Shown one piece after another: positions 6,095 through 58,470 of a stretch of DNA of 62,545 bases. Source of the stretch: Candidatus Micrarchaeota archaeon (GTDB lineage Archaea > Micrarchaeota > Micrarchaeia > Micrarchaeales > CABMGC01); NCBI GenBank assembly GCA_021792235.1, contig JAJYVC010000002.1, positions 1 to 62,545 of the forward strand, read 5' to 3'. The position numbers and the translations under genes were made by a program. The first letter of the stretch is position 1; each line of letters opens with the position of its first letter. The notes beneath the pieces were generated by a model that saw nothing but the letters and a program-made list of their open reading frames with translations, did not search any database and had not been told where the DNA came from.

Positions 6095-6113
6095 CTGGTA
6101 AAAGGCTCGTATA

Positions 6114-11071: not shown

Positions 11072-11089
11072 ACGCCGGGTTTTCCGATA

Positions 11090-12037: not shown

Positions 12038-12043
12038 AGTATA

Positions 12044-12940: not shown

Positions 12941-12961
12941 TTTTGCACCTTAATTCTGTAT

Positions 12962-13005
12962 TTGATATGTTCATTTGATATACCATGTTGATATTTAATT
13001 GATAT
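12962..13005. repeat. four direct copies of TTGATAT at 13/13/11-bp spacing, upstream of hemH paralog 1
   Basis: Copies at 12962, 12975, 12988 and 12999. Copies 1 and 4 extend to TTGATATGTT. They lie in the 104-bp spacer between the hemH start (12940) and the TnpB stop (13045). Confidence 0.6.
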
Positions 13006-13037
13006 GTTATGCATGCTGCTTTATGTTGTGACATCCT

Positions 13038-13058
13038 CTCCTAACTAAAGGTTAGGAG
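13038..13058 (-). repeat. perfect 8-bp stem / 5-nt loop hairpin straddling the TnpB stop codon (candidate IS right-end / omega-RNA structural element)
   Basis: CTCCTAAC (13038-13045), TAAAG loop, GTTAGGAG (13051-13058). Confidence 0.55.
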
Positions 13059-14271
13059 CTTCCCCTGCGTTTGCAGAGTCTGTTCCCAGCTCTTCGAGTC
13101 CGTTTGCATTCCCTGTTGGGATGTATTGACGATTCTCTCCCAGAGCGTGACTTTGGGAGTGTCCCTCCCTAGCTCTCTTGAGTATATTTATGGATGCGTT
13201 CATGTCCCTGTCCAGCTGCAACCTGCATCTATCGCAGTTGAATGCCATTATTTCCAGCGGCATCTCCATGATGTTGCCGCAGTTACTGCATTCCTTTGAA
13301 GTGTTATTGGGATTGACTTTTATTACTGCCTTTCCCCTTTCCTGCGCCTTGTAGGTCAGGAACTGCACAAACCTGCTCCATGAGGCGCTTTGGATTGACT
13401 GCGCAAGACGATGGTTTCTTTCCATGTTCTGGATCCTCAGTGCCTCTACTGCGAATGACGTGAATCCTCCATTTGCTAACTTTTGCGGAAGTTTGTGCAT
13501 GAAGTCGTTTGACTGACTTGTTACTGCGTTCCATTCTTCCTGAAGATGATACTTTGCCTTCTGTCTTCTCTTTTGAGCCCTTCTTGCGCCTGGCGACTAT
13601 TTTCTGCCATCTCGCAATCTTCTTTTCAGCCTTCTTGAAGAACTTTGGCTTCTGGAATGTCTCTCTGTTTGAAAGCGCAATGAAGTTATTGAGTCAGAGG
13701 TCTATGCCGACTGGGTTTGTATCCTTTATCTCTGGGATTTGTTTATGCTGAACTGCGGTAAATATTGCATAGTAATTGTTTTCTTCCTTTGCGATTGTCA
13801 GGGTCTTTATCTTGCCTTCTATATTCCTGTGCATCTCCATCCTTATCGTACCTGATATTTTTGATACCCTGAGCCTGTCTTTCTCTATCCTGAATGAGCC
13901 GTTGTTCTCTATGTGGGTGATGGATTTGTATTTATCCGTTGACTTGAACTTGGGAAATCCCTTTTTCTTTGCGTCTTCATTGCATCTGCCAAAGAAGTTT
14001 TGGTATGCCCTGAGCATCCTGTTCCTTATGTCTACCCTTACGTGGGCATAAAGGCGGTGATATTTTTGTCTTCTTTGAGTATCTCATTCATGTATTGATT
14101 AATGGTTCTCTGTGAAACTTTGCGTGACTGAATTGTCTTTTCCAGCAATTTGTTGTATAGTTCATGTGCAAGGAATATGGATTCGTCTATCTACTTCTGC
14201 CTTTTGAAGTCAGGGTAGAGCCCGAACTTGTAAACATGGACTATTTCCATGTTTCCTGTTTTGTTTTCCAT
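13045..14271 (-). pseudogene. tnpB: IS200/IS605-family TnpB (OrfB) RNA-guided nuclease gene, disrupted by at least 2 in-frame stops and 2 frameshifts
   Basis: Fragments read by hand. MEIVHVYKFGLYPDFKRQK* has its stop at 14191-14193, then a frameshift near 14040-14050. ...NPVGIDL* has TGA at 13694-13696 in place of the Gly codon of the GIDLG RuvC-I motif, then a frameshift near 13565-13580. The last fragment, ...FAVEALRIQNM (RuvC-II Glu)...CSNCGN..FNCDRCRLQLDRDMNASINI, carries the Zn finger and RuvC-III. Confidence 0.85.
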
Positions 14272-14301
14272 TCTTATATACCTTCTTGCACGCCATTACT
14301 C

Positions 14302-15312
14302 CTATCTCAAGGATAGAAGTTTGCGAGCGTGTTGAATTTTATCAACCACGATATCTGATAAGGCCTCGGCAAGCTTTGCAGACCCGTTAAGTGGCTTCAC
14401 CAGTGTTATACCTATTCTTGAAGCGGATGCCGCTTCCTTGCACATCGCAGCCAAGCCGTATAAGGTTTCGAAATTGTCGGCCACATATCCAAGCGGTACT
14501 ATGAGCACGTGATCGTACCCATTCTCCTTGCATTCTCGCACGAATCCAGTTATCTCTCTTACAGGCGCCGGATGTCCGCCAGTATAGTAGGCGCATGACC
14601 AATCTTGCAGGTCTAGGGACTTGGCGATTCTAGCTGCAAATGATTCAAAATTCCTTATATACGGATCACCGCCGTCTATGAACACCTTGGGCAGGCTGTG
14701 CGTAGCGAAGATGACCATCGTCCGGAGTTTCCTAAGCTTTGCGTATGGCTTTGATATTGCACTTTGCCAAGCTTCAGATAATTTCTCATTGTCATCCCAA
14801 GACTTCACTATGACTCCGTTTTTGCCGAACCCGTATTTCTTCAGGCTTGAGACAAACGTTTCTTCGTACTCATCACCGTATACCTTTGAGTATGTAGGGA
14901 ACATCACTATCCCTATTAACAGGGGGTTTGGGGAATTTTTGGCCTTTGCTACTGCTTCGTCTATTGATGGTCGCAGATGCTTCATTCCAACAAGAACCTT
15001 TGCGTCAATACCGATATTTTTCAACCTTGAATGTAGCATATTGGCTTGCTTAAGGGTTATTCTTACCAGGGGAGATCTGCCGCCTATTTTAGTATATTTC
15101 TCCCGAAGGGCTGCGAGCTGGTCTTCAGAAGGCTTCTTTAGGGCGTTGGCTACAGTGGCTGCATTGCGCGGATCTTTTAGAATACCAGCTACTAGCGACC
15201 TTGTTATTTTATGGTTGCGGTGCATGCTGCCCAGATAATCAGCTATCCCTTTCCTTCCATGTGGGCTTCCAACACTCATCAATATTACAAAGGTTTGATG
15301 TTCCGAATACAT
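14302..15312 (-). CDS. ferrochelatase-family protein (divergent paralog 2)
   Basis: FVILMSVGSPHG, KYTKIGGRSPL, FATHSLP, LGYVADNFETLYG. It lacks the FQS...WLGP motif (it has CAYYTGGHPAPVREI instead) and carries a ~30-aa N-terminal insertion relative to paralog 1. Confidence 0.7.
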   Translation of the reverse strand: MYSEHQTFVILMSVGSPHGRKGIADYLGSMHRNHKITRSLVAGILKDPRNAATVANALKKPSEDQLAALREKYTKIGGRSPLVRITLKQANMLHSRLKNIGIDAKVLVGMKHLRPSIDEAVAKAKNSPNPLLIGIVMFPTYSKVYGDEYEETFVSSLKKYGFGKNGVIVKSWDDNEKLSEAWQSAISKPYAKLRKLRTMVIFATHSLPKVFIDGGDPYIRNFESFAARIAKSLDLQDWSCAYYTGGHPAPVREITGFVRECKENGYDHVLIVPLGYVADNFETLYGLAAMCKEAASASRIGITLVKPLNGSAKLAEALSDIVVDKIQHARKLLSLR

Positions 15313-15502
15313 AGACTACAGCCCAAGCAAATTTGCTTCGTACTTAATATTAACACCATAACCCAATATTAATACATATAATGCCCTTTCTGCCGCATTA
15401 CTTGCCAGCACAAGTGTGTGCGTTGATGAGGATCTGGCCAGTTTATAACGTGGTTGTAAAAACAGTAATGTTTTTAGACCTATACAAAATATAATTATTA
15501 GT

Positions 15503-16981
15503 ATGGCCAGTGGTGCAGTACAGTCTGCCAAAAGTAGAGCTACGGGAAGAAAGGAGGACGCGGAAGGAAGCATAATGGGAGATATTAAAGCGGTTGCAGA
15601 AGAATACATGATAGAGAGCGGGCCATCTTATGGCAACAACTTCTTCTTCACTATAGGAGTTTATCTGTTGCTGCTTTTCGGTGTTCTTGTAGTGACAGGG
15701 ATAGTGATGGTGCTGTTCGGACCTTACTGGTGGGATCTTACTTCTATTGGTACGTTTATACGCAGCATACACATGTGGGCTGCAGAAGCGTTTGTCACAC
15801 TTATATTCATACACCTATTTGTCAATTTCAGCACTTCTGCATTCAGGAAAAGGAAGCTGATGTGGATAATAGGATCAGTAATGCTCATGCTAGTGCTTCT
15901 TGAGTTCGCATTTGGTGTAGGTATGGGTGGCAGCTTGCTGGCCCAGGCAAACCAGCAGGCCGGATCTGATCTCTGGAACGGGATGGGCCTAGGTTACTGG
16001 ATAAATCCAATGAATTCAGGCGCGGTTCTAGGCTGGCATATTGCCATCATACCGATAATCCTGATAGCGCTTATGTTCCTGCACTACAGCATTGTGCGCA
16101 AGAGAGGTCTAGTTACGCCATACAGGAAGGACATACCTTACAGTGTGACGCCGATAGACCATAAAATGATGTATAAGCGTATGATCTACCTTCTAATTAT
16201 AGTGCTAGCCTTCGCAGTGCTGTTCAGGGCCCCGTATATGCCGCCACTGACCATAAGCCAGGCAGCCAATCAGAATCCGGACGCTGTTGCAAGCGCATTC
16301 CTAAACGAATCTAACATGACATCCGCTACAGCCACCTACATCGACACGATAGATCCTTTCAGATTCAACACGCGGTACGTGTATGTCACCTATCCATATT
16401 CTGTATACTTGAATCTAACGCACTCGAAAAACCTTGAGGCACAGTTCCTAGCGGAAAGCACATCACAGCAAAACGACACGCTGGCACAGGCATATGCTTA
16501 TTTCGAGGCCAATGGAAGCATCAGGAGCGGGACCAATTCCACCAATCCGATGATAGGGTTAGCTTCAACGCTTACATACATGGCGCAAACTGGAGCATAC
16601 CAGCCAATCCTTCAAAGCGAAGTTGCTGGAGGCATGAACTATACCTATGTTATAAGGTTCCTGTACGACACAGGTGCACTGTGGAATGCCGCAAGCCAGT
16701 ACAACATAAGCGTGCCGCAGTGGGGCATGCTTACAGTAGGCGGCAACCCCCCATTGCGTCTGGAGTACTGGCTTATACCTTATAATTTCATGCAGATAGC
16801 GATGGCTGGAGTGCCTTGGTGGAATGACCTTGAAAACGGCACAGTAGTATTCTTGGCATTCCTGATATTCCTATTCTTGCCATACATACCAGGACTTAGG
16901 GCAATACCTGATAAATTAAAACTTTATAAATTGTTCTGGAACAGGTTTACCGTGCCTGAGATGCGGAAGGAGAAAAAGTAG
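15503..16981 (+). CDS. cytochrome b N-terminal-domain protein fused to a large Asn-glycosylation-rich extracytoplasmic domain
   Basis: Two bis-His helices: IHMWAAEAFVTLIFIH (His-x13-His) and WHIAIIPIILIALMFLH (His-x14-His). About 5 N-terminal TM helices, then ~220 aa with 8 or more NxS/T sequons, then a terminal TM helix. Alternative start at ATG 15575. Confidence 0.7.
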   Translation: MASGAVQSAKSRATGRKEDAEGSIMGDIKAVAEEYMIESGPSYGNNFFFTIGVYLLLLFGVLVVTGIVMVLFGPYWWDLTSIGTFIRSIHMWAAEAFVTLIFIHLFVNFSTSAFRKRKLMWIIGSVMLMLVLLEFAFGVGMGGSLLAQANQQAGSDLWNGMGLGYWINPMNSGAVLGWHIAIIPIILIALMFLHYSIVRKRGLVTPYRKDIPYSVTPIDHKMMYKRMIYLLIIVLAFAVLFRAPYMPPLTISQAANQNPDAVASAFLNESNMTSATATYIDTIDPFRFNTRYVYVTYPYSVYLNLTHSKNLEAQFLAESTSQQNDTLAQAYAYFEANGSIRSGTNSTNPMIGLASTLTYMAQTGAYQPILQSEVAGGMNYTYVIRFLYDTGALWNAASQYNISVPQWGMLTVGGNPPLRLEYWLIPYNFMQIAMAGVPWWNDLENGTVVFLAFLIFLFLPYIPGLRAIPDKLKLYKLFWNRFTVPEMRKEKK

Positions 16982-17051
16982 CCCCAGCCAGATTCGAACT
17001 GGCGTACACGGGTCCAAAGCCCGTGGTCCTTGGCCGCTAGACGATGGGGCT
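16979..17051 (-). tRNA. tRNA-Gln (anticodon UUG)
   Basis: Hand-folded cloverleaf: acceptor AGCCCCA/TGGGGCT, D stem GTCT/GGAC, anticodon stem ACGGG/CCCGT with loop CTTTGGA, T arm GCCAG-TTCGAAT-CTGGC. No encoded CCA and no intron. Confidence 0.9.
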
Positions 17052-42209: not shown

Positions 42210-42866
42210 TCACTGCTTTATGGCGCTTATGCAGGCGAACGCATAGGTACCGCTGGTATGGTAGTATCTGCTTGCTGCTGCCTCCTCCCTCTCAACCTGC
42301 CGTATGTTCTTTGAATCAGACACCATATAGTATTCTGTCTTCTTCACATCAAAGGTGCTCATGAGGACATCGAGAGCCTTGTCATCATAGACCTTCACAA
42401 ACGGCTTGCCAGAGACCGTTATGAGGTCGGATATGCCATACTTGCACGTGAATATCAGCTGCCCCCCCTTGTTGATAAGCTCCTTTATCTTGGTCATCGC
42501 CTTGACGTCGCTATGCTTGTCCAGATACTCTGAGCGGTTGTAGTGCCTTAATCCGAAATGTCCCAGAGAATCCATTGCGATTATTATGTCGAATTTCTCC
42601 TTGCCGAAATCATGCGAATTGAAGTCGCCCTTTATGAACTTCATGTTTGCATGCTGCATGCCGTAGTCATTATAATCTATGCCGGTAACGTTGTAGCGCA
42701 TCATTGCTAGCTGCAGTGAAACAGGACTACCAGTGCAGCCAACATCGAGAACCTTCGCAGGATCCCTGATGTTCCTGAACAGGAAGGGTATTTCGACGAT
42801 GTGCTCGTCTACCTTTCCACCCCTTATCCCGAAATTCAGCACTTCGTTGTTTTTTCCGAATAGCAT
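42210..42866 (-). CDS. class I SAM-dependent methyltransferase
   Basis: Motif I: VLDVGCTGSPVS. An acidic residue follows beta-2 (GIDYN). 218 aa. Confidence 0.65.
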   Translation of the reverse strand: MLFGKNNEVLNFGIRGGKVDEHIVEIPFLFRNIRDPAKVLDVGCTGSPVSLQLAMMRYNVTGIDYNDYGMQHANMKFIKGDFNSHDFGKEKFDIIIAMDSLGHFGLRHYNRSEYLDKHSDVKAMTKIKELINKGGQLIFTCKYGISDLITVSGKPFVKVYDDKALDVLMSTFDVKKTEYYMVSDSKNIRQVEREEAAASRYYHTSGTYAFACISAIKQ

Positions 42867-43122
42867 TGCCGTACCCTGATCGAGTTCGTGTTTTCCAGGA
42901 ACTTGCTTAGCAAGGAGACTTTTGGAACTACTGATTTATTAGCTTTTTTATAACTGGGTTATATCAAAGTCTATATCCGCGCCATCTGGCCAGATATTGC
43001 CCTGATCACTTGATAGTACGCGGTGTTTACCAAGCTCGCGTCGTGAGCTCCGGAAACAACAAAGGTTATCTGGAGCATGCAAAATAAGATCGTGATTGCA
43101 ATCATCAAACCATAAAATGACA

Positions 43123-43431
43123 TCAGGACACACCTACACAGATAATGCTGTTTACAGCATTTTCGCAGTGCACGTACGAGAAATTGGATTCTTCCGAACT
43201 ACGGACAATGCTCAGTCTGCTAATTCCATACACCTTCCTATAGTAAAGGGAATAATTGTCAATGCATTGGACATTATTGCTCAATGCGCATTCCTGCGTT
43301 GACTTGTTGTAGAGTATCTGCATCAGGAAATCATATGCGGCTGCCTTTGATGCGAGAGCTGACCTTTCTGTAAGCAGTGACTGTTGGGACGTATTCATTA
43401 TGCTGCCGCTTAGTGAGACTGCGGATAGCAC
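43123..43431 (-). CDS. pilin-like protein, last gene of the pilus operon (start uncertain)
   Basis: The ORF from GTG 43431 starts inside a hydrophobic helix. In-frame codons up to 43479 encode LKVQFATIEAIASLLIV, which resembles the Q-x(3-4)-E pilin N-termini of the upstream genes, but they contain no ATG/GTG/TTG. Confidence 0.45.
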   Translation of the reverse strand: MLSAVSLSGSIMNTSQQSLLTERSALASKAAAYDFLMQILYNKSTQECALSNNVQCIDNYSLYYRKVYGISRLSIVRSSEESNFSYVHCENAVNSIICVGVS

Positions 43432-43475
43432 TATAAGCAGCGATGCAATCGCCTCTATGGTTGCGAATTGAACTT

Positions 43476-44729
43476 TCAGCTAAACACCCTTATGACAGAA
43501 CCAGCATATGAAAGCGTTTGGTTGCCATAGGAATATTGCTGGATCAATGTGGCATTTATTAGGTAATAGAAAGGATATTCTGCTGGGCACGATATTGAAC
43601 TGCCTTCCTTTTTGCATACAGATAAAGTGTTGTTATCTGTGGCCGAAACAAGCTGGCCTTCGTAATAATTGTATTCTGATACGTCTTGCTGGATCTCTGA
43701 AGAGATGCCAGGAGACACCCAGCTCGAATTGTACTGTTCGAGCAGCCGGAAAAGATTGCTCCTGGCTTGCTCGTATTCGCTTGCATAAGTGTAGTTTATC
43801 AAGTACATGTTTTCTCCATGTATTAGCAGGGCCGCAGGGCTTGTCTGAGACGAGGTTACATTTTCTACAGAAGTGTTGCCAACTAAGATGCCCGAGTAAT
43901 ACATAGGGCTGCTTTTATTTGCGCTTGAAATTCTTGAATTGAATGCGTGCGCGCCGACTATGGTTATATTTGCGGAGTATTCATAGCTGCTCTGATACGG
44001 ATTGAGGATACTTGCATTATATCCTGTGCCCTGCGGATTTACACATATGGTCTCTGTCTGCACCCCGCCATATGAGCAATATGTCAATGACACGCGATAT
44101 TGCCATGCGTCATATGACCCGCATTGCGCGTTTATTGGATAGGGATTGTAAAAGAAGTCTTCAAATGTGCAGTGGCTAGAAACATACAGATAGGGAACTT
44201 CCTGTTCCTGTGAATTATATATTGTGCTTTCATTCCTTTTTGTTATATACGCCGCATAAGAACCCGTGCCCGGATATTTTGGCGCCTCTGTACTTAGATA
44301 CTCTGATCCGTTGTATATAGATCCATTGCATGCTATGCTGTATTTCAAGCGGGCCTTGTTAAGCCCACCAGATGTTGTGAAATTGTCCAGATATGTCCAC
44401 ACATTGTAGAAATTTTCAGTTATATTATATGTGGAGAAGGTGATGCTTGATGAATTCAAGGATATAGATATTGTGCCATTGCTACACCCGTATGCTGCAA
44501 CGTATAGGGTATTCTGATAGTCTTGCGTTGAAACGGGCGGCATCGATGCTTCCAGATAAGGCTTTTGGTGATAGGTGGGGTTTGGACCCGTAGTATAATT
44601 AGCAAAATAGCTTTCTGGAAGGGTACTATAATGCTTTATCTCGGTGCCGTACTGTGTTATTGAAAATAGCACTAATAAGCTTATTGCTCCGGCTATTATA
44701 AGGAATTCCAGACTAGTTTGTTGTCTCAT
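43476..44729 (-). CDS. large pilin-like protein (class III signal peptide), Asn/Cys/Tyr-rich; candidate tip/adhesin subunit
   Basis: MRQQTSLEFLIIAGAISLLVLF N-terminus. 417 aa with many NxS/T sequons and about 10 Cys. 4-nt overlap with the upstream gene. Confidence 0.65.
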   Translation of the reverse strand: MRQQTSLEFLIIAGAISLLVLFSITQYGTEIKHYSTLPESYFANYTTGPNPTYHQKPYLEASMPPVSTQDYQNTLYVAAYGCSNGTISISLNSSSITFSTYNITENFYNVWTYLDNFTTSGGLNKARLKYSIACNGSIYNGSEYLSTEAPKYPGTGSYAAYITKRNESTIYNSQEQEVPYLYVSSHCTFEDFFYNPYPINAQCGSYDAWQYRVSLTYCSYGGVQTETICVNPQGTGYNASILNPYQSSYEYSANITIVGAHAFNSRISSANKSSPMYYSGILVGNTSVENVTSSQTSPAALLIHGENMYLINYTYASEYEQARSNLFRLLEQYNSSWVSPGISSEIQQDVSEYNYYEGQLVSATDNNTLSVCKKEGSSISCPAEYPFYYLINATLIQQYSYGNQTLSYAGSVIRVFS

Positions 44730-45064
44730 TTTATCACCAATATTCTTGTGGCGCCCCCTATCTGGACTACCCTGCAGAAAAATTTGCTGCAGTATGAATA
44801 GTTTGATGGATAGAGTATACTTGCAGATATGTTGTAGTATCTGCTTAGCCCGTATACCGTGCCTTCATCTGCACTGTAGTTTGCAGTGCCGCCATTAATG
44901 ACTGCTAACATCTGCTGCGATATGCTGTAATACTTTAACTGATTGTATGTTGAGTTTGCATAGGAATAGTAGTAACTCTGGGAGATTGCCAGGCTGTGCG
45001 AAATCAGGGCTATTGACAGTATTGCTATTGGTATGGCCGCTGCCATGTCTGCAGATATTATCAT
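44726..45064 (-). CDS. membrane-anchored protein of the pilus operon (possible minor pilin)
   Basis: The N-terminal hydrophobic segment AAAIPIAILSIALI lacks the Q...E motif. Tyr/Ser/Asn-rich. Tightly packed in the operon. Confidence 0.45.
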   Translation of the reverse strand: MIISADMAAAIPIAILSIALISHSLAISQSYYYSYANSTYNQLKYYSISQQMLAVINGGTANYSADEGTVYGLSRYYNISASILYPSNYSYCSKFFCRVVQIGGATRILVIK

Positions 45065-45068
45065 TTGA

Positions 45069-45260
45069 TCAGCCTGCGCATCTGCATGAATTTAATAGAG
45101 ATTCTGAGTAGTGTATCGATAGGTTTGCAAGACCATCAATTGACGCAGAGGTATGGAGCGATTCGGCATATGTGTGGGTATAGAGAGAATAGAACATTGC
45201 GGCGATTAGCAGCGCGATCGACATGCTTAGCAGTATCTCCAAGCTTAATTGTAGTATCAT
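45069..45260 (-). CDS. small pilin-like protein
   Basis: MILQLSLEILLSMSIALLIAAMF (Q-x3-E plus a hydrophobic helix). 63 aa. Confidence 0.5.
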   Translation of the reverse strand: MILQLSLEILLSMSIALLIAAMFYSLYTHTYAESLHTSASIDGLANLSIHYSESLLNSCRCAG

Positions 45261-45264
45261 CTTG

Positions 45265-45624
45265 TCACACTATGCTTACGTTTCCTGTTCCGTAGTATAT
45301 GCTGGCTCCGACCATTCCTGCTGAGCACAGGAGGCTGCCGTTTATCCTTACTGTTTCAGCAAGATAGAACGTCCAGTAGCCGATACTGAACGAACTTCCA
45401 TTTACTTTTATGCCACATATGCCGTGAGGCACCTGCAGATAGACATAATCATATCTGCCCAATACCGCAGTATTTATTGCGCTGGCGAAACTCGAGTAAC
45501 TATAGTAGTTTAGCGACTGGTTTACGCTGGCCCTGTACGATGATATCGCTGAAACAGAATAAATAAGGGAGATGCCTGCCACCGCTATGTAGGCGAGCAC
45601 CTCCAAAGACATCTGCGCCTTCAT
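45265..45624 (-). CDS. pilin-like protein (class III signal peptide)
   Basis: MKA|QMSLEVLAYIAVAGISLIY: a [KR]-A cleavage context with Glu at +5. Confidence 0.6.
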   Translation of the reverse strand: MKAQMSLEVLAYIAVAGISLIYSVSAISSYRASVNQSLNYYSYSSFASAINTAVLGRYDYVYLQVPHGICGIKVNGSSFSIGYWTFYLAETVRINGSLLCSAGMVGASIYYGTGNVSIV

Positions 45625-45627
45625 CGC

Positions 45628-45873
45628 TTATGCCCCTTTTGATAGGTTGGACAGCTGGCTGGATATGGCTTGGCTTATGCTGGAATTTGATCCGCCCGAG
45701 CTAACGCCGGTTACTACTGATCCTTTCAGCTTCACTATCATGGCCAAGGCTATAAGTATCACTATGCTGGCTGCCGAGAGCATCATTATGTACTCCAAGG
45801 AGCCTTGCGCCCTCCTCTTCCTTGCAAGCAATACAAATGCCTGCGCCTCTACTGGAACAATTGCTTCTATCAT
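45628..45873 (-). CDS. short Flp-like pilin (class III signal peptide)
   Basis: ...RKRRA|QGSLEYIMMLSAASIVILIALAMIV, then a ~30-aa Ser/Gly-rich tail. Alternative TTG start at 45831 would give MLARKRRAQ.... Confidence 0.6.
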   Translation of the reverse strand: MIEAIVPVEAQAFVLLARKRRAQGSLEYIMMLSAASIVILIALAMIVKLKGSVVTGVSSGGSNSSISQAISSQLSNLSKGA

Positions 45874-45882
45874 TTTTGCACC

Positions 45883-46626
45883 TCATATAGCATAGGATAT
45901 GAAAGACGATGATGCCTTGATTATTCCGGCGCCTATCACAGCTGCCTGAAAAGACATGAACAACGGATCCTTGTTTGCAGAGTTCTTGAAAGCATCCATT
46001 AGGTAGCTCATCACAGCCACATAAATTATGATAACTGCCTGGAATCCAATGACGACATTCTGGGCCTGCATTCCGTTTATCGAGGCTGAGCCACTTATTA
46101 TGCTAGAGGCTATGCCGCCGAACATTGGCACGAAAAAGGAGACGCCTACGCTGGAAAGGCCATCCATGTTAAGTGAATTAAGATCCGCTCTGTTTCCATT
46201 CTCTATGTCCGATTCCAGCCGGGATATGAACTGGTCAAGGTTATTGCGTATGTCTGCGCCGCCCTGAATGCCTGCCACTATTATCGCAGCAAGCTCAGAG
46301 ATATTGCTGTCGGCACAGTGCGTGTAGCTTCCCTGGGATAGTTCGCCAAGGGCAGACCTCTTGGCAAGTTCTTTGATATCTGTTGGTGCATTAGAATCAT
46401 TTATAGATCTGCAAAGCGCAGAATTCAGGTCTGATCTTTGTACATCGTATCTGAAGCTCCTTGCAAAGGCCAGAAGTTCATGCTTGCCTGCTTTTGCACT
46501 GGGCCTGCTGGAAAGGTTGTATGCAAGAGCCAGCAGCGCCGATGCTATGAGCATCCACCACCAGATGGATGATGCTGCGAGCATTGCAAGCATAAGCATA
46601 ACGTATGCAATTTTTGGTCTGTTCAA
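45883..46626 (-). CDS. type II secretion system F-domain membrane protein (TadC/FlaJ-half-like platform subunit)
   Basis: 247 aa. An N-terminal TM helix, a cytoplasmic helical domain and 2-3 C-terminal TM helices. 4-nt overlap with the upstream paralogous gene. Immediately downstream of the ATPase. Confidence 0.6.
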   Translation of the reverse strand: MNRPKIAYVMLMLAMLAASSIWWWMLIASALLALAYNLSSRPSAKAGKHELLAFARSFRYDVQRSDLNSALCRSINDSNAPTDIKELAKRSALGELSQGSYTHCADSNISELAAIIVAGIQGGADIRNNLDQFISRLESDIENGNRADLNSLNMDGLSSVGVSFFVPMFGGIASSIISGSASINGMQAQNVVIGFQAVIIIYVAVMSYLMDAFKNSANKDPLFMSFQAAVIGAGIIKASSSFISYAI

Positions 46627-47321
46627 TAAATCGGCCTTTTTGCTATGGATTTTATTATCGAATATGTTACCGGAACGGCTGATACAAGCAATATGGACAT
46701 GAATTCAGTGCTTGAATAGCTCTGCGATATGAGCATCCCACCAACGAAGGAGAATATCACAAATGAAGGAGCTAAGGTCGATACGAACATGCTTAATGTG
46801 GCGTACCTAGATGCAAGTGCATTGGACCTGTACGCTTCCGATCTTCTGTGCGACTGGTAGAGCCGTGGAGCCTCCCCTATACCGGATTCCGGATTCTTTA
46901 TGTATCTTCTCAATTTCTCCTGCAGTCCGCTGGATCCAGACGACGCATTGTACATCGCATCGTAAAAGCTCTCCCCGAGCTCTATCCGCATTGATGCAAG
47001 GCGGAGCATCTTGGACGTATACGGGTTTTTATCAGATTCTGATGCTTTTCTCAATGATCTTGAAAGGGAGATATTGGAAGACTCATAGTATAGAGCTTTC
47101 CCTAGGCCAGACATGACATCAGATATGTCACCATCTAGCTTCGACTTCTGCATATGCCTGGAATGTATTATTGCAATAACAGAGAAGGATGACGCAAAAA
47201 CAAGTGAATTTGCCAAAATAAGAGTAAAGTCGATAGTACCCTGGGCATATGATATGAGCACAGCTAGCGATATTGCACATGGCACAGCAAGGATTATTTT
47301 CATGCGTGTTTTACCATCCAT
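46623..47321 (-). CDS. type II secretion system F-domain membrane protein (TadB/FlaJ-half-like platform subunit)
   Basis: 232 aa with the same TM/cytoplasmic/TM layout as 45883-46626. Overlaps the ATPase stop by 11 nt. Confidence 0.6.
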   Translation of the reverse strand: MDGKTRMKIILAVPCAISLAVLISYAQGTIDFTLILANSLVFASSFSVIAIIHSRHMQKSKLDGDISDVMSGLGKALYYESSNISLSRSLRKASESDKNPYTSKMLRLASMRIELGESFYDAMYNASSGSSGLQEKLRRYIKNPESGIGEAPRLYQSHRRSEAYRSNALASRYATLSMFVSTLAPSFVIFSFVGGMLISQSYSSTEFMSILLVSAVPVTYSIIKSIAKRPIY

Positions 47322-48810
47322 AGTATTTCCTCACGGCTTCTTCGACATAGCCAGACTTGCCAGCAGGCGCATTTGATATCACCTTGGAACGTCTTTCAAG
47401 CTCCTTAATAGCATCCTTTGCGGTGATCCCGTTTATGCGTGAATAACACAGTACCACCTTGGAGTCCTTCAACTCGGGCTTGCACAGCTTGCCGTCTTTC
47501 ATCAGTTCTGATACCTGCACCATCTCCTCTTCGCCGATGCCTATCCCCTCCTCTATCTCTGCTCGGCTGAGCCATTTGTATTCTGATATTCCAGATACAG
47601 CTCTTCTGCTGATATCAGTCTGCTTCATGTACATGGCAAGGTCTAGGGCACCTATCCCTTTCGGATCTACATTCATGGGCTTGACCATAAGCTTCTTCAG
47701 TATCTGTATGCCGCCTTCATTGCTATGCATGGTTGCTGCGAAAGATATGCCCATGTTAGCGCCCATGAAAAGGTCCCGAGTCTCTTCTGCGCGCATCTCG
47801 CCTATTATTATTCGGCTAGGTCTCATCCTCAGGGAATTGACCACCTGCTCTTTTGGCGTTATGGAATTGTATCGTGACCCATACAGTGCGACCAGATTGG
47901 ATATCCCAGAAGAATTGAGCTCGTTGACGTCCTCTTCTATTGTTATCACTTTGTCATTTGAAGGCACAAATGCATTGAGGCAGCTCAGGAACGTAGTTTT
48001 GCCGCTTGCCGGGGCTCCGGAGATTATCATATTGCACTTGCACTCTATGGCAAGCCACAGATATGCCAATATCAATGGATCAGCAGTGTTATTTGAGAGC
48101 AGATATCCAAGATCTATGTTCTTCTTTCCTCCGATTCTGATTGATGCGGCTGCGCCGCTTACTGCGTATGGCCTTATCTGCGCATGCACCCTGACGTCGG
48201 ATACCTGTGCGTCTATTATCGGCGTCCTCTCACTGAGCTCCTTTTCTGTATCCACAATGAGGCGGTTTATTGCGCTTCTGAAAGCGAATTCGCTTGAAAA
48301 ACAGATATTGGTCATGCATCTCCCGTATTTAGCTGAATACACTATGAGAGGGGATTGCGGCGAGTTTATCTCTATCTCCTCTATATTCTGCTTGTCATCC
48401 AGCATGATGCTTATTGGTCCATAGCCTGCAGTATCGTGTGCAATGATGTATGACAGAACCTCTGCCTTGTCCTGAGGCACATTCTGTAAGAGCCTTTGCC
48501 TTGCGAGCATGGCGGCGTCTGCTATGCTGGGCTTGCTTGACTGATACGACTCTGAAAGAGAAGATATGACTGATTCCTTTGCCATCTCCATGGGCCGGAT
48601 CTCATTGGGGGACATGTTTGCGAGCAGGGAATAAAAGTATCCGTTAGACGCCTTTGTAATCGCACGCTTAGGGAAGGCACTGAATTCTTCGATAATGTTT
48701 GAGGTTTCGGGCTCTGATACGTGTGTGCCTAGCTTTGACCTCTTTGGCTCTGGCACAGCTTTCTTGCTGAAAATCAGGCTTTTTATGGAGCTTATACCTA
48801 TTGGCTGCAT
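47311..48810 (-). CDS. type II/IV secretion-system ATPase (FlaI/TadA/PilB family)
   Basis: Walker A in ISGAPASGKTTFL, Asp box VITIEEDVNEL, Walker B SRIIIGEMR, His box AATMHSN. Confidence 0.9.
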   Translation of the reverse strand: MQPIGISSIKSLIFSKKAVPEPKRSKLGTHVSEPETSNIIEEFSAFPKRAITKASNGYFYSLLANMSPNEIRPMEMAKESVISSLSESYQSSKPSIADAAMLARQRLLQNVPQDKAEVLSYIIAHDTAGYGPISIMLDDKQNIEEIEINSPQSPLIVYSAKYGRCMTNICFSSEFAFRSAINRLIVDTEKELSERTPIIDAQVSDVRVHAQIRPYAVSGAAASIRIGGKKNIDLGYLLSNNTADPLILAYLWLAIECKCNMIISGAPASGKTTFLSCLNAFVPSNDKVITIEEDVNELNSSGISNLVALYGSRYNSITPKEQVVNSLRMRPSRIIIGEMRAEETRDLFMGANMGISFAATMHSNEGGIQILKKLMVKPMNVDPKGIGALDLAMYMKQTDISRRAVSGISEYKWLSRAEIEEGIGIGEEEMVQVSELMKDGKLCKPELKDSKVVLCYSRINGITAKDAIKELERRSKVISNAPAGKSGYVEEAVRKYYGW

Positions 48811-48825
48811 ATAATCTTTTACTCT

Positions 48826-48843
48826 AGTATATAATTATATACT
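48826..48843. promoter_or_regulatory. 18-bp perfect palindrome AGTATATAATTATATACT in the divergent promoter region (TATA box and/or operator)
   Basis: Verified base by base. It lies 16-33 nt upstream of the ATPase ATG (48810). TAGTATA recurs at 48845. (T/A)ATATACTTT occurs at 48835 and 48859, and TATATAC occurs again near 48950. Confidence 0.6.
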
Positions 48844-48979
48844 TTAGTATAAATAGGTTAATATACTTTGTGGTACTGGGTGGCTTTGAAGTTTGCAAAG
48901 GTATACAAGATTGTAGCGGGCTAAAACTTGGTATATATTTATATACGTTTAGGATTGATTCATAATGTGGTAAAGTTCT

Positions 48980-49309
48980 ATGCCTAAGACGGAAAGAGAC
49001 AACGATGAGATATGGCTTATCAGGAAGATACTGAGCAAGCCCAACTATGCAGTATTGAAGCTGCTTATGGTCAAATCGCCAAGGACCACCAGAGAACTAT
49101 ACACAGTGCTTGGCAAGAAATTTACCAGGAAGACGCTGATAATAACCCTAAGGAACCTATCGATGAGCATGAGCGTACTCCAGCCAACGCACATAAGGAC
49201 GGAAAGGGGCTACGACCTTGGTTACAACATAAATCCTAGGCTCAAGGAGGTTGTCAAGTCAGTCGAGAAGTTCGAGAAGGTAGTAGAGAGCATAACTTCT
49301 TCTAAATAA
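48980..49309 (+). CDS. small winged-helix DNA-binding protein (putative transcriptional regulator)
   Basis: 109 aa. NYAVLKLLMVKSPRTTRELYTVLGKKFTRKTLIITLRNL resembles an ArsR/MarR-like wHTH. It is divergent from the pilus operon. Confidence 0.45.
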   Translation: MPKTERDNDEIWLIRKILSKPNYAVLKLLMVKSPRTTRELYTVLGKKFTRKTLIITLRNLSMSMSVLQPTHIRTERGYDLGYNINPRLKEVVKSVEKFEKVVESITSSK

Positions 49310-49388: not shown

Positions 49389-50099
49389 ATGATTCTGAAC
49401 AAGCCGTACGTACTAACCGACATAAAGAAGACAACCAAGGATGTCACCACATTCACGTTCAAGGCGCAGGACGGCACCAGCATAGACTTCTCTCCAGGCA
49501 TGTTTGCAATGCTCACTTGGATGGGCCCGGATGGGCAGAAGATAAGCAGGGCGTTCTCAATAGCCAACTGCCCTCCATCAGGAGAGCTGCAGTTTTTCAT
49601 ATCCATGATAAAGGGCCAGTTCACTTCGAAACTGGAGAATGCGAAGGTGGGCGATGTTTACCAGGTGTCTGCGCCTTACGGGCAGTTCAAGCTTGAGAGC
49701 AACTTCGGCAACAAGCTGCTCTTCCTTGCCGGAGGCACTGGCCTTGCGCCTTTCTTCTCAATGCTTAAGTACATAATAGGCAAGAATTCTAAACCCGACA
49801 TAGTGTTGATATACAGCGTAAAGTATCCATACGACATAATAGAGAAGGAAGAGCTTGAGAAGATGATCGCAGCCTTAGGCGGAAAGCTTACCGTAACGGT
49901 GACTAGGCCTGCGGACGGCGATGGCTGGACCGGAGAGAGGGGGCACGCGAATGCAGATATGATCAAGAAGTATGCACCTGATTCCAAGGATAGAGTAAGC
50001 TACATCTGCGGACCGCCAGAATTCGTGAAGGCGCTAAAGGCTGCGCTTGTGTCTTTGGGCACTAATGAAAAAGAGATAAAGGCAGAGATGTGGGGCTAG
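49389..50099 (+). CDS. ferredoxin-NADP reductase-like FAD/NAD(P)-binding oxidoreductase
   Basis: FAD motif RAFSIAN (RxYS type). NAD(P) motif LLFLAGGTGLAPFFSM. C-terminal YICGPPEF. Confidence 0.7.
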   Translation: MILNKPYVLTDIKKTTKDVTTFTFKAQDGTSIDFSPGMFAMLTWMGPDGQKISRAFSIANCPPSGELQFFISMIKGQFTSKLENAKVGDVYQVSAPYGQFKLESNFGNKLLFLAGGTGLAPFFSMLKYIIGKNSKPDIVLIYSVKYPYDIIEKEELEKMIAALGGKLTVTVTRPADGDGWTGERGHANADMIKKYAPDSKDRVSYICGPPEFVKALKAALVSLGTNEKEIKAEMWG

Positions 50100-50743: not shown

Positions 50744-51247
50744 ATGAGCACAATAAGAAAACTGATTGAAAGAGCGGACAAGGTATTAAGATTCCCAACT
50801 GCTTACGCGCACTGCGACATACCATGCGGCATATACGATCCTCATGCGGCGCAGGTTGCAGCACACACAGTAGTAAGGATGGACATGCTCATTGCAGATG
50901 CAATGAAGTCTGGAGCTGCAAGCGCAGAAGATAGAAACAAAATTATCAGGTACGTTGGCGTGAAGGAGCAACACGCGGAGATAGTGAAGCATGAAGTTGC
51001 AGTCATATGGGGAGACTACATGAAGCCTGAGCACGCAAAGGCGCATCCTGAGCTTCATGAGCTCGTATGGAACACGCTAAAGCTTGCGGGCAAGGCAAAG
51101 CAGAGCACCAACATACAGGATGCAGAGGCCCTGCTTGAGAGCGTGCAGAAGTTCGCAGAGGCGTTCTGGGCCACGAAGAACGTACAGACGACAAGAGCGA
51201 AATCCTTTTACCCTACAGAGAGGACCTTCGTATACCCTAAAGTATAA
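50744..51247 (+). CDS. sodN: nickel-containing superoxide dismutase precursor
   Basis: Ni-hook motif HCDIPCGIYDP at 50810-50842, preceded by a 22-aa leader MSTIRKLIERADKVLRFPTAYA. A four-helix-bundle-like remainder follows. Confidence 0.85.
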   Translation: MSTIRKLIERADKVLRFPTAYAHCDIPCGIYDPHAAQVAAHTVVRMDMLIADAMKSGAASAEDRNKIIRYVGVKEQHAEIVKHEVAVIWGDYMKPEHAKAHPELHELVWNTLKLAGKAKQSTNIQDAEALLESVQKFAEAFWATKNVQTTRAKSFYPTERTFVYPKV

Positions 51248-51249
51248 GC

Positions 51250-51534
51250 ATGAGGCTTCCTCTGATGATATACAGGGTTGCTGAGCGCAGCATGGAGCCA
51301 TCCATAATGGAAGGCTCATATGTCATAGTAAACTGCTGGCCGCTCAGAATGCGCAGAGATGACGTGGTCGTTGCAAAGGATCCTTACGGAAGAATCATAG
51401 TCAAGAGAGTGAAGAGGGTGAAGGACGGAAAGCTCTTCCTTGTTGGAGACAACGCACGCAGGAGCATTGACAGCAGGAGGTTCGGATGGGTGGATATGGA
51501 AAGGGCATTTGGCAAGGTCATCGCCGTTGTCTAA
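51250..51534 (+). CDS. sodX: NiSOD maturation protease (S26 signal-peptidase-I family)
   Basis: 94 aa. Ser nucleophile motif ERSMEPS, Lys in IVKRV, and GDNARRSIDSRRFGWV. It starts 3 nt after the sodN stop. Confidence 0.8.
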   Translation: MRLPLMIYRVAERSMEPSIMEGSYVIVNCWPLRMRRDDVVVAKDPYGRIIVKRVKRVKDGKLFLVGDNARRSIDSRRFGWVDMERAFGKVIAVV

Positions 51535-56356: not shown

Positions 56357-57292
56357 ATGATGAATATGCGCATATTGCTGCAGTTTCCCGAGGGCTTGAA
56401 GCAGGAGGCTCTTAGGCATGCCAAGGAGCTTGAGGGACAGGGGAACGAGGTGGTAGTATCCGCCACCCCCACATTTGGTGCGTGCGACCTGGCAATTGAC
56501 GAGGCGAAGAACATCGGCGCTGAGAAGATAGTCCATTTCGGCCATGCGGAATTCCACAGAGTAGATTTCAACGTCGAATACGTGCCTTATCAGATCAATG
56601 CTGATTTCAGCATACTAGACAGGGCCGTTGAGCCGCTCAGGCAGTTCAAGACAGTAGGAATAGTCACCACGATACAGCACATACACCAGCTCGACAAGGT
56701 TGCTGACTTCTTTAGGCAGCATGGCAAAGAGGTGGTGATAGGCAAGCCTTACGGCTTCGCGAAGAAGCCTGGCCAGATACTCGGGTGCGATGCTGGCAGT
56801 GCGGCAAGCGTAAATGGCAGGGTTGATGCGTTGGTATACTTCGGCGGGGGTATGTTTCACCCTCTTGGTGCGCTTCTGGTGACTACTAAGCCGTTCCTTC
56901 TGATAGAGCCGTTCCAGGGCACAGTGGAGTTCATAGACAAGTACAGGGAAATATATTCCAAGAGGAGCAGGGGCAAGATCCTTGCATCTGTTGATGCAAA
57001 GAACATCGGCATACTTGTGACAACTAAGAACGGTCAGAACAACATGCCAATGGCCAGGATACTTAAGGCAAAGGCAGAGTCCGCAGGGCTGAGCGCTGCA
57101 ATACTCGTATCGAATACCTTCGACTTCGGATCGATAAACAACATGCTTGAGTTCGATGCATTCGTGAACACCGCATGCCCCAGGATATCGATAGATGATA
57201 CAGACAGGCTCAGGAAGCCCCTGCTAAGCGCTAACGAGTTCAATGAAGTCCTCAGAATAAAGGACGAACTAAAAGGAGGGCGCAAACGCTAA
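56357..57292 (+). CDS. dph2: 2-(3-amino-3-carboxypropyl)histidine synthase (diphthamide synthesis, Dph2)
   Basis: ILLQFPEGLKQEAL..., GACDL, TTIQHIHQL, and the NTACPRISIDD pattern of archaeal Dph2. Confidence 0.85.
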   Translation: MMNMRILLQFPEGLKQEALRHAKELEGQGNEVVVSATPTFGACDLAIDEAKNIGAEKIVHFGHAEFHRVDFNVEYVPYQINADFSILDRAVEPLRQFKTVGIVTTIQHIHQLDKVADFFRQHGKEVVIGKPYGFAKKPGQILGCDAGSAASVNGRVDALVYFGGGMFHPLGALLVTTKPFLLIEPFQGTVEFIDKYREIYSKRSRGKILASVDAKNIGILVTTKNGQNNMPMARILKAKAESAGLSAAILVSNTFDFGSINNMLEFDAFVNTACPRISIDDTDRLRKPLLSANEFNEVLRIKDELKGGRKR

Positions 57293-57816
57293 GCGGCCTT
57301 GGCAATTATCCTTGCCATCTCAACGTAATAAGTGGTTGACGGATTTGTTGAGGTGGTGTATTCTGCCCATATTGTACCAGTGAGTACGGTGCCTACGCCC
57401 CAAGTTATTCCTGGGGGGGAGTAGATTGACACCTGCGCTGTCTGGCCAGATTGCAATCCGCCAGGTATCACGGCATCTACTTCATTAGGCTTGTTGTATA
57501 TCTGGGACGGTATGCCGCTTGCTGTAAAAGATGAGGAGTTGGCTTCTGTTATGTAGTAGATGGTGACTGTTGGCCAGTTTACGCCGGTATTCTGGCCTAC
57601 GATAAATGTTGCCTGCGCAGGGCTAGCACCACGGTTTGCAAGGAAGGTCACTGAATTGCATGCGAATCCTGGCAGCGGAGTGCAAGCGGTCTGCAGTGGA
57701 TTTCCGCTGTTCTGCGAGAAGGTGAATGCGATTACTATTACTATTGCGATTATGAGGATCGCCCAGCCATACGTGATCAAGTACTCCATTGCACTCTGAA
57801 GCTTTAGGTTTTTCAT
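57289..57816 (-). CDS. type IV pilin-like protein (class III signal peptide), paralog A
   Basis: MKNLKL|QSAMEYLITYGWAILIIAIVIVIAF, then a Thr/Gly/Ser/Ala-rich globular part. GTG 57825 is an alternative start. Confidence 0.75.
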   Translation of the reverse strand: MKNLKLQSAMEYLITYGWAILIIAIVIVIAFTFSQNSGNPLQTACTPLPGFACNSVTFLANRGASPAQATFIVGQNTGVNWPTVTIYYITEANSSSFTASGIPSQIYNKPNEVDAVIPGGLQSGQTAQVSIYSPPGITWGVGTVLTGTIWAEYTTSTNPSTTYYVEMARIIAKAA

Positions 57817-57867
57817 ATATTTCACTTGATCGTGCTCAGTTTCGACCTTCCTCAGTGTAATGATACA

Positions 57868-57900
57868 GAAATAAAAATAAAAAGAAAGGAAAAGAAAAAG
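57868..57900 (-). terminator. oligo-T tract terminator candidate between the tandem pilin genes
   Basis: The minus strand reads CTTTTTCTTTTCCTTTCTTTTTATTTTTATTTC, starting about 10 nt after the paralog B stop (57910). Archaeal termination commonly occurs at T-runs. Confidence 0.5.
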
Positions 57901-57909
57901 CAGGCTGAA

Positions 57910-58470
57910 TTATACCTGCTTTAGGTTTACTCCTGTTGTCAGCTGTTGTGCGTATACTACACTACTTGATGACGTTGTGTAAACCGCCCAAATCTGGCCG
58001 GATGCCGAGGCTCCATTTGACCCTGAATTGCTGTTAGGGAAGTATACCGAAACGGCCTGTCCGCTGGCAATGGTGGTTGATCCTCCATTCAAAATTGTTC
58101 CGCATATTGGACCAATTGTTCCTCCGGTTCCTAAAGTTATAGAATTGGTTTGCATTACACCAGGAAGGCAGTTAAGTGCAGGCGAGCTGCCTGTTACCCA
58201 AGCCAAGGTGTATCCATTTGGTATCCATACGATATTGGCGCTTGCCCAAGTTGTACCTGTTGCCTGACCGACGATTGCATTAAATGCGCCGCTTGTTAGT
58301 ACTGGACTCTGGCACGTGATTCCTGACTGAGCAAGACATGTAGTGCCCAGTGGACTTCCTCCCAGTATTCCTAGGGAGAACAATGCTACCATGACAACAG
58401 CTATGATGAGTATTGCCCACCCGTAGGTCATCAGGTATTCCATAGCGCTTTGTAGCTTTATATTTGCCAT
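57910..58470 (-). CDS. type IV pilin-like protein (class III signal peptide), paralog B
   Basis: MANIKL|QSAMEYLMTYGWAILIIAVVMVALF, then a Gly/Thr/Ser-rich mature domain. A TATA-like CATATTTAAATAC lies upstream. Confidence 0.75.
   Translation of the reverse strand: MANIKLQSAMEYLMTYGWAILIIAVVMVALFSLGILGGSPLGTTCLAQSGITCQSPVLTSGAFNAIVGQATGTTWASANIVWIPNGYTLAWVTGSSPALNCLPGVMQTNSITLGTGGTIGPICGTILNGGSTTIASGQAVSVYFPNSNSGSNGASASGQIWAVYTTSSSSVVYAQQLTTGVNLKQV

Follow-up and report, generated by a model that had tools for sequence, protein, structure and literature searches.

The stretch of DNA examined here (the window; 62 545 nucleotides, nt, of contig JAJYVC010000002.1 in the Candidatus Micrarchaeota archaeon assembly GCA_021792235.1) carries a run of ten minus-strand genes, from position 48810 down to 42971, that very probably forms an operon for an Epd/Tad-like type IV pilus of Micrarchaeota. 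The run begins with an assembly ATPase (gene 1), continues with two half-size platform proteins (genes 2 and 3) and ends with seven genes (4–10) whose products have an N-terminal hydrophobic helix; a class III-type signal, [KR]-x-Gln-x-Ser/Ala-x-Glu, is conserved in five of these seven (genes 4, 5, 6, 8 and 9). A first-pass annotation had listed nine genes, all on the minus strand, and had seen no obvious match to Epd pili. Every open reading frame (ORF) that it named is present on that strand in the ORF list, but the count comes to ten, the last gene lying just outside the span it had covered, and a conserved divergent regulator-like gene has to be added. The statement on Epd does not stand either: three Epd-like/Tad hallmarks fit the locus, namely Gln at position +1 with Glu at +5 of the mature pilins, two platform paralogues and a short Flp-like pilin. 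The junctions between the ten genes measure −11, −4, +9, +3, +4, +4, −4, −4 and −1 nt. With genes that overlap or are separated by gaps of 9 nt or less, the run is predicted to be a translationally coupled operon; overlaps or gaps of at most 4 nt, as reported earlier, describe most junctions but not the one gap of 9 nt.

Gene 1 (47311–48810; 499 amino acids, aa) matches the Pfam family T2SSE with an E-value of 4.2e-19 (68.9 bits versus a cutoff of 24.9) and contains GAPASGKT at residue 265, IIIGE at 334 and TMHS at 360, corresponding to Walker A, Walker B and the His box, respectively. It is predicted to be a secretion/assembly ATPase of the PilB/FlaI/TadA superfamily, in agreement with its first description as a FlaI/TadA-type ATPase with the motifs GAPASGKTT and IIIGEMR. 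The best sequence matches in the PDB are afGspE of Archaeoglobus (1.5e-30, 109.7 bits), CpaF of Caulobacter (3.9e-28) and FlaI of Sulfolobus (2.8e-20), with identities to the window copy of 33, 32 and 27%, respectively, that of FlaI being the lowest; afGspE and FlaI are 47% identical to each other. The best NCBIfam models are FlaI (NF058587; 127 bits, cutoff 550) and TadA (TIGR03819; 124 bits, cutoff 373). Since both scores lie far below their cutoffs, gene 1 is, on this measure, an orthologue of neither FlaI nor TadA. A quartet was computed from 12 Micrarchaeota ATPases and the aligned regions of afGspE, CpaF and FlaI (240 columns; four-point condition on BLOSUM distances). The split of Micrarchaeota plus CpaF from afGspE plus FlaI was recovered in 300 of 300 bootstraps, by a crude distance method with three references, without EpdL and with long branches. 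Read with that reservation, the quartet rules out nesting of the ATPase inside FlaI and appears compatible with a position on the Epd/Tad side; clustering within archaellum FlaI, which had been named earlier as the finding that would speak against a pilus, is not seen in this crude distance test, which places the ATPase with CpaF.

The first-pass reading of genes 2 (46623–47321; 232 aa) and 3 (45883–46626; 247 aa) as two half-size T2SS-F-like proteins that overlap by 4 nt is borne out by their coordinates and by a comparison of the two families. Gene 2 reaches 27.9 bits with Pfam T2SSF, above the cutoff of 25.2, and has a layout of two transmembrane segments, one T2SSF domain and two further transmembrane segments. 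Gene 3 and eight of its orthologues, scanned singly against Pfam, gave no match, T2SSF included. The gene 2 and gene 3 families align in HHalign with a probability of 96.7% (E-value 4.5e-10) over 137 columns that cover the T2SSF region and the next membrane helix. Their kinship is therefore visible only by profile–profile comparison, as the single-sequence Pfam scans never reached T2SSF. In each of the two proteins membrane segments flank a single cytoplasmic domain. We conclude from these alignments that two separate proteins, paralogues with one domain each, make up the halves of the platform, gene 3 being the diverged paralogue of gene 2.

Gene 4 (45628–45873; 81 aa) encodes a Flp-like prepilin with the N-terminus RRA↓QGSLEYIMML (the arrow marks the predicted cleavage site), which divides the precursor into a 22-aa leader and a 59-aa mature part. 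The earlier description as a Flp-like pilin is retained; its length of 55 aa is that of neither the precursor nor the mature protein. N-terminal motif statistics were taken over the orthologues of 31 species. The gene 4 motif [KR][GA]Q[GS]S[LIM]EY(I/M/L)MM occurs in all 31, with Gln at +1, Ser at +3, Glu at +5, Tyr at +6 and the two Met residues invariant, and the leaders are 12–63 residues long (median 24). All 22 orthologues that were tested match the Pfam family Class_IIIsignal (PF04021; best E-value 1.3e-5); the window copy scores 19 bits, under the cutoff of 23.7. Pfam Flp_Fap is matched by one of the 22 (E-value 0.019) and not by the window copy. Of the features of the Flp motif, Gly or Ala before the cleavage site and Glu5-Tyr6 are present in 31 of 31 orthologues ([GA]↓QGSLEY), and the 59-aa mature part of the window copy lies in the Flp size range of about 50–60 aa. 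In the mature gene 4 product a hydrophobic helix of 30 residues is followed by a short tail in which N-x-S/T sequons are conserved. No other pilin of the operon is conserved as well, and on these features gene 4 is a candidate for the major subunit.

The remaining products with an N-terminal hydrophobic helix are more varied. Gene 5 (45265–45624; 119 aa) starts with MKA↓QMSLE, and the pattern M-[KR]-A-Q-x-S-[LF]-E is found in 30 of 31 orthologues; over its first 38 residues it shows homology to the corresponding part of genes 6 and 8 (HHalign 95–97%). Gene 6 (45069–45260; 63 aa), a small pilin-like gene, starts with MIL↓QLSLE, and 26 of 31 positional orthologues have the motif (Gln+1 and Glu+5 in 25–26 of 31). 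In gene 8 (43476–44729; 417 aa), the large pilin-like gene, MRQ↓QTSLEFL conforms to M[KR]xQ[TAS]S(L/I/V/T)EF, present in 31 of 31. Gene 9 (43123–43479) had been listed with a GTG start and 102 aa. With a CTG at 43479 as its start, a codon that shares nucleotides with the TGA stop of gene 8 (agCTGAaa), it extends to 118 aa; the residues so added, LKVQFATIEAIASLL, match the orthologues' N-terminus MKAQFATIEA and give a signal of the form (M/L)KV↓QFATIEA, with MKAQFAxxE in 28 of 31 orthologues. The junction of genes 8 and 9 in the relatives is an ATGA overlap at the place where the window has the CTG overlap (43477–43479), and a gene 9 without a canonical start is found also in the closest relative (locus L010) and in loci L048 and L055. 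Gene 7 (44726–45064; 112 aa) has the N-terminal hydrophobic helix with a degenerate signal lacking Gln (consensus ..lislD.l.alp, or ..(I/L)SLD.L..), and is related to genes 6 and 9 at 83–85% in HHalign. Gene 10 (42971–43123; 50 aa, MSFYGLMIAITILF...) has a start that shares 1 nt with the stop codon of gene 9 (TGATG); the product begins with MSFYGL (family consensus ms.yGl), followed directly by a hydrophobic helix, and has no Gln motif. The gene is a conserved positional member of the operon, and its family hidden Markov model (HMM) matches the window ORF at an E-value of 1.5e-11.

Taken as profiles, genes 4, 5, 6 and 8 are homologous to one another over their N-terminal 35–40 residues (HHalign 81–97%), and genes 7 and 9 join this set more weakly, via gene 6. 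Pfam and NCBIfam searches with genes 5–10 and with 40-residue N-terminal pieces returned nothing but a weak Flp_Fap match of gene 8, and for genes 4 and 8 the PDB yielded no sequence match even at an E-value of 10. Class III signals had been proposed from four motifs in six pilin-like genes (RRA↓QGSLE, KA↓QMSLE, L↓QLSLE and Q↓QTSLE). All four are there, and the proposal is strengthened by the conservation of the motif in genes 4, 5, 6, 8 and 9 over 26–31 of 31 species; the proportion rises to five of six through the KVQFATIE signal of gene 9.

The 417-aa product of gene 8 is rich in Ser (13.9%), Tyr (11.3%), Thr (8.2%) and Asn (7.9%) and has eight Cys residues and 18 N-x-S/T sequons, so that its former description as rich in Asn, Cys and Tyr is kept for Tyr and Asn, with Ser and Thr to be added and Cys given as a count. 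Only 18 sequence homologues were found among 5.8 billion proteins. The AlphaFold2 model (predicted local distance difference test, pLDDT, 79.9; predicted template-modelling score 0.58) contains an N-terminal helix (residues 3–35), a low-confidence linker, β-rich domains of the β-sandwich type and two long helices. Foldseek comparison of the model with the PDB gave generic Ig-like/β-sandwich matches only, with template-modelling (TM) scores of 0.26 or less; among them are viral glycoproteins, complement MG domains and CFA/I pilins, and none is a specific match. The idea that gene 8 is a tip adhesin is speculative: with a pilin helix, a β-sandwich model and generic matches, it is a guess.

The arrangement recurs widely. 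Gene 1 has 1187 homologues, with an identical copy in the metagenome-assembled genome (MAG) GCA_027363135.1 and a closest non-identical relative at 68% identity; the named matches among the best 120 are Candidatus Micrarchaeota, Micrarchaeia and Micrarchaeaceae, with one labelled Marsarchaeota. Positions 1–14000 and 17000–62545 of the window map to separate contigs of GCA_027363135.1 (DAHXRV010000026.1 and DAHXRV010000008.1), and the window, to judge by this match, stems from an assembly that is more contiguous and belongs to the same organism or a nearly identical one. When a single genome of each species was scanned, 80 related loci were found, with titles that are nearly all Micrarchaeota, 'Marsarchaeota' or uncultured archaeon and with ATPases 38–68% identical to that of the window. 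ORF chaining shows the same series of gene lengths (about 500, 230, 250, 85, 123, 67, 120, 425, 127 and 90 aa) across loci. Because one order recurs in dozens of species with ATPases this divergent, the gene order is, on comparative grounds, not a chance arrangement. For a census, family HMMs were built from 31 clean loci and run against six-frame ORFs of all loci; scoring was confined to the 61 loci whose sequence, counted from the start of the ATPase gene to the end of the locus, extends for at least 6.8 kb. Genes 1–5 are present in 61 of these 61 species-level loci, gene 6 in 45, genes 7–9 in 49 and gene 10 in 48, and the order is kept in nearly all. The same ten-gene operon occurs in a Mancarchaeum sp. 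MAG (L077). In 12 loci (L017, L022, L026, L030, L038, L043, L047, L049, L051, L063, L087 and L088) a short variant retains genes 1–5, gene 4 among them, and has other genes in place of genes 6–10. The replacement genes of L088 include proteins of 355 and 384 aa, and in both L087 and L088 a LemA and Peptidase_M48 pair then follows. Public annotation misses or mis-calls the small genes 6 and 9, skipping gene 6 outright; their conservation across relatives argues that both are real. The methyltransferase gene downstream (42210–42866) was considered as a pilin N-methylase component and rejected, being operon-linked in the three closest relatives only.

Upstream of the ATPase gene, across an intergenic region of 169 nt (48811–48979), a 109-aa gene (48980–49309) is transcribed from the plus strand. 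It has the same position in 73 of about 80 related loci, and 14 orthologues are 73–88% identical to the window copy, versus 38–68% for the ATPases. The protein has no Pfam match at the curated cutoff, and only 17 matching clusters were found in a representative library of 1.84 billion proteins. Its AlphaFold2 model (pLDDT 89.3) is a winged helix–turn–helix with a long C-terminal helix, and the best fold matches in the PDB are HxlR (TM score 0.73), PadR and MarR regulators. Position and fold together make it a candidate for a dedicated transcription regulator of the operon. Two perfect TATA-like palindromes of 16 nt, of the form GTATATA(AT/TT)TATATAC, lie between the two divergent genes, GTATATAATTATATAC at 48827–48842 and GTATATATTTATATAC at 48931–48946. 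The centre of the first lies about 25 nt upstream of the ATPase ATG, a spacing that would fit a leaderless transcript. In the relatives nothing of the two palindromes is conserved beyond an AT-rich, TATA-like character, and for this reason they are not claimed as operators. A ferredoxin-reductase-like gene (FAD_binding_6 and NAD_binding_1; 49389–50099, plus strand) then follows the winged-helix gene and is syntenic, in varying orientation, in 51 related loci.

These parts suggest the following mode of action. The prepilins would be inserted into the membrane, and an A24 prepilin peptidase encoded elsewhere in the genome would cut the leader just before the Gln. A hexamer of the ATPase would dock on the platform formed by genes 2 and 3, and its use of ATP would lift the 59-residue gene 4 subunit from the membrane into a thin helical filament held by the N-terminal helices and Glu5. 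Genes 5–10 may encode minor pilins of low abundance, by which assembly is primed and the filament capped; among these, gene 8, heavily glycosylatable and with a β-sandwich model, is the most likely distal or adhesive component. The winged-helix protein probably controls the shared promoter region. By resemblance to related systems, adhesion is the likeliest role of such a filament, in attachment to surfaces, biofilm or host cells, with DNA uptake as a second possibility. In the micrarchaeon ARM-1, cryo-electron tomography shows thin filaments that 'could represent archaeal pili', and the cytoplasmic bridge to the host is a nanotube embedded in the host cell envelope (PMC11329633); that the host bridge is a nanotube lowers the odds that the pilus itself is a conduit.

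Several points weigh against a complete Epd/Tad-like pilus assembled around gene 4. The prepilin peptidase is not in the window: no Peptidase_A24 is found anywhere in its 62.5 kb, either among precomputed Pfam assignments or by scanning all other ORFs against Pfam. Pfam likewise shows no archaellin, FlaC–H or other fla accessory gene in the window, and the first-pass statement that prepilin peptidase and archaellum-specific genes are missing extends to its whole length. Nor does Pfam show a second ATPase of the TadZ/FlaH/FleN/MinD/KaiC type in the window, and the absence of a TadZ/FlaH/MinD-type ATPase from the locus is unlike typical Epd and Tad loci. In the distant relatives L087 and L088, no A24 peptidase, archaellum genes or second ATPase lie within ±9 kb of the ATPase, and no secretin, TadZ or TadV-type peptidase family occurs among the operon neighbours in the window, L087 or L088. 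Where Gly or Ala is usual, at position −1, the minor pilins often have Leu, Ile or Met, and this bulky residue makes cleavage of genes 6, 8 and 9 uncertain; the Gln motif is absent from genes 7 and 10. The placement of the ATPase, which depends on three references and distance methods without EpdL, may be affected by long-branch attraction. Finally, two stand-alone pilins of 175–186 aa with the same signal could be the major subunits instead of gene 4.

These two genes, found by a motif scan of the window, form a tandem on the minus strand 8.5 kb from the operon, at 57910–58470 (186 aa, MANIKL↓QSAMEYLMTYGWAILIIA) and, for the paralogue, at 57289–57816 (175 aa, MKNLKL↓QSAMEYLITYGWAILIIA). Their N-termini are of the type K-L-Q↓SAMEYL(M/I)TYGWAILIIA, and they belong to no Pfam family. 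They may be trans-encoded subunits of the same machine or of another. That they or similar pilins provide the major subunit, with the operon pilins all minor or priming, in the arrangement of the euryarchaeal PilA pili with their trans-encoded major pilins, is possible but doubtful. Two tandem genes with K-L-Q↓SAMEYL signals at 57289–58470, related genes directly 3′ of gene 10 in L025 and L081 and the frequent occurrence of archaeal type IV major pilins as stand-alone, multi-copy genes (PMC4858521) argue for it. The stand-alone genes are, however, poorly conserved and loosely linked to the operon, whereas gene 4 is the most conserved pilin, found in 61 of 61 loci including the short variant, and matches the Flp/EpdE-type major pilins in size and in Glu5-Tyr6 (PMC6668835). 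The pair may also serve another system, two pilus systems having been reported in Mia14 (PMC5498576).

A more far-reaching reading of the operon, as a deep-branching, DPANN-specific sister of Epd and Tad that has retained the ancestral split platform and Flp-like subunit, has its own set of seven pilins and its own winged-helix regulator, and uses the filament to find or hold hosts, is tentative and, taken as one joint claim, on the unlikely side. Were it true, it would widen the known range of the archaeal lineage that gave rise to bacterial Tad and offer a genetic handle on host attachment in DPANN archaea.

It is also rather improbable, and a matter of analogy, that the main job of the same machine is DNA uptake, as a competence pilus that binds extracellular or host DNA and draws it to the cell surface, and not adhesion. 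The signal type and split platform of the operon match Epd, and natural transformation of Methanococcus maripaludis requires Epd-type pili, with transposon hits in epdJ, epdK, epdL, eppA and pilin genes (PMC10133366). Gene exchange between Micrarchaeota and their hosts is extensive and type IV pili have been suggested as its route (PMC5498576). Set against this, no gene for a DNA-binding protein, nuclease or transporter is operon-linked in the window or its relatives, nor is a retraction ATPase evident.

A short pseudopilus for protein secretion or surface-protein assembly, similar to a type II secretion system or a bindosome, is very improbable. The same core parts (an ATPase, a platform and several pilin-like proteins) drive such systems, and the ATPase does have a NCBIfam BasE match, but a weak one (63.8 bits versus a cutoff of 1000); moreover, neither secreted enzymes nor substrate-binding proteins that carry class III signals are operon-linked in the window, L087 or L088, and true filaments typically have a small Flp-like subunit that is highly conserved. 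An archaellum locus with its accessory genes outside the window, to which the label 'flagellar protein FlaI' on some homologues at the Joint Genome Institute (JGI) and the nominal first rank of FlaI among the NCBIfam matches of the ATPase might point, is practically refuted by the FlaI score (127 bits versus a cutoff of 550, with TadA nearly equal at 124), the absence of archaellins and FlaC–H from the 62.5 kb and from ±9–10 kb around the ATPase in two distant relatives, the FlaI identity of 27%, the lowest of the three references, a split platform unlike FlaJ and the lack of archaellum genes in Mia14 (PMC5498576), all of which favours the pilus that had been proposed over an archaellum.

Elsewhere in the window, positions of about 3800–17000 hold a heme-related gene cluster, in a genome-reduced DPANN archaeon, with genes for GlutR, ALAD, a porphobilinogen deaminase–HEM4 fusion, URO-D, a chlorite-dismutase-like protein and a radical SAM protein, together with two ferrochelatase genes (12044–12940 and 14302–15312) and cytochrome b (15503–16981). 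Between the two ferrochelatase genes lies a 151-aa ORF (13045–13500, minus strand) with a Cas12f1-like TNB domain (Pfam E-value 4.1e-24), which is probably a fragment of the TnpB/Cas12f type. At 50744–51534 (plus strand) a nickel superoxide dismutase gene (Pfam Sod_Ni) is followed directly by a small S24/S26-type peptidase gene, an arrangement that resembles a pair of nickel superoxide dismutase and its maturation protease.

Micrarchaeota are obligate, genome-reduced symbionts whose contact with their hosts is poorly understood. The presence of genes 1–5 in 61 of 61 scored genomes of a phylum that readily sheds genes suggests that the filament matters for this lifestyle. The analysis provides a corrected parts list of ten genes and a regulator-like gene, including small genes missed in public annotation and a CTG start, as well as a candidate major subunit and a clear signal-peptide motif with which more substrates can be found.

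Among the systems with which the locus can be compared, the clade 2 pili (Haloferax PilB3/PilB4, and afGspE, which we take to be a member of this clade) are linked to it by afGspE, the best-scoring relative of the ATPase with a solved structure. The ATPase differs from this group in being 33% identical to afGspE, versus 47% between afGspE and FlaI, and in not grouping with afGspE in the quartet. Many clade 2 loci have two tadC genes and a FlaFind-positive, all-β minor pilin of 250–550 aa (arCOG02911), which resembles gene 8 in size and fold class (PMC4858521). The cleavage sites of Haloferax PilA, D/R-A↓V-S, differ in having no Gln at +1 (PMC4371748).

Within the same phylum, two type IV pilus systems were annotated in 'Candidatus Mancarchaeum acidiphilum' Mia14 in 2017 (Golyshina et al.; PMC5498576), MIA14_0170–0177 being placed in the 'Methanococci/Methanothermobacteria/Thermococci group' and MIA14_0252–0260 in the 'euryarchaeal group'. 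That genome has a single FlaK-like peptidase, encoded elsewhere, and no archaellum, and key pilus components were described as common to many Micrarchaea (PMC5498576). The likeness lies in an ATPase, TadC genes and proteins with class III signals (PMC5498576). As the counterpart of the window operon, MIA14_0170–0177, the 'clade 1' locus, is favoured by the CpaF-side ATPase, the two TadC genes and the Gln at +1, and MIA14_0252–0260 by the gene count (ATPase, TadC, a 'component' and seven class III proteins). The Mia14 paper is confined to annotation; signals, split platform and regulator were not analysed there.

The Epd pili of Methanococcus are cut at RAQI, KGQV, KGQL and KGQI, with conserved Gln at +1 and Glu at +5; they need the EppA peptidase and are assembled by EpdL with the PilC paralogues EpdJ and EpdK (PMC4371748). 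In loci of this clade 1 (Epd), two TadC genes are accompanied by no fewer than five minor pilins (Makarova et al.; PMC4858521). The window locus resembles Epd of Methanococcus maripaludis (clade 1 of Makarova et al.) in having one ATPase and two adjacent one-T2SSF PilC/TadC paralogues, pilins with Gln at +1 and Glu at +5 (K-G/A-Q...E), a small predicted major pilin with at least five minor pilins in the locus, and N-glycosylation sequons. It differs in gene order, the ATPase preceding the two platform genes here versus epdJ-epdK-epdL in Methanococcus, in the bulky hydrophobic residue often found at −1 of its minor pilins and in pilin families that have no detectable similarity beyond the N-terminal segment. 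The window locus also lacks EppA, a FleN/MinD- or FlaH-type ATPase and the large, PilY-like DUF2341 proteins.

The bacterial Tad/Flp (type IVc) pili resemble the locus in several respects. The ATPase gene precedes the two half-size platform genes, an order known from tadA-tadB-tadC, and the locus encodes a pilin that has a long leader, Glu5-Tyr6 (Flp motif G↓xxxxEY) and, when mature, about 59 residues. Several pseudopilin-like genes, one of them large, recall TadE, TadF and TadG, and in the crude distance test the ATPase lies on the CpaF side of the quartet. The locus has no secretin RcpA, TadD or RcpC, because the archaeal host has no outer membrane, and no TadZ or TadV-type peptidase. Further differences are the TadA score (TIGR03819) of 124 bits versus a cutoff of 373 and the Gln at +1, which is not the usual residue in Flp pilins. 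Denise et al. define an Epd-like + Tad clade by two one-T2SSF-domain platform genes and short major pilins, and derive bacterial Tad from it (PMC6668835). Set beside all of these systems, the locus encodes no new kind of machine but represents a known pilus type, the Epd/Tad-like one, in a form specific to its lineage. Epd/Tad-type features (a split platform, Gln at +1 with Glu at +5 and a Flp-like pilin) thus occur in DPANN archaea, and their occurrence there bears on the proposed archaeal origin of the bacterial Tad pili.

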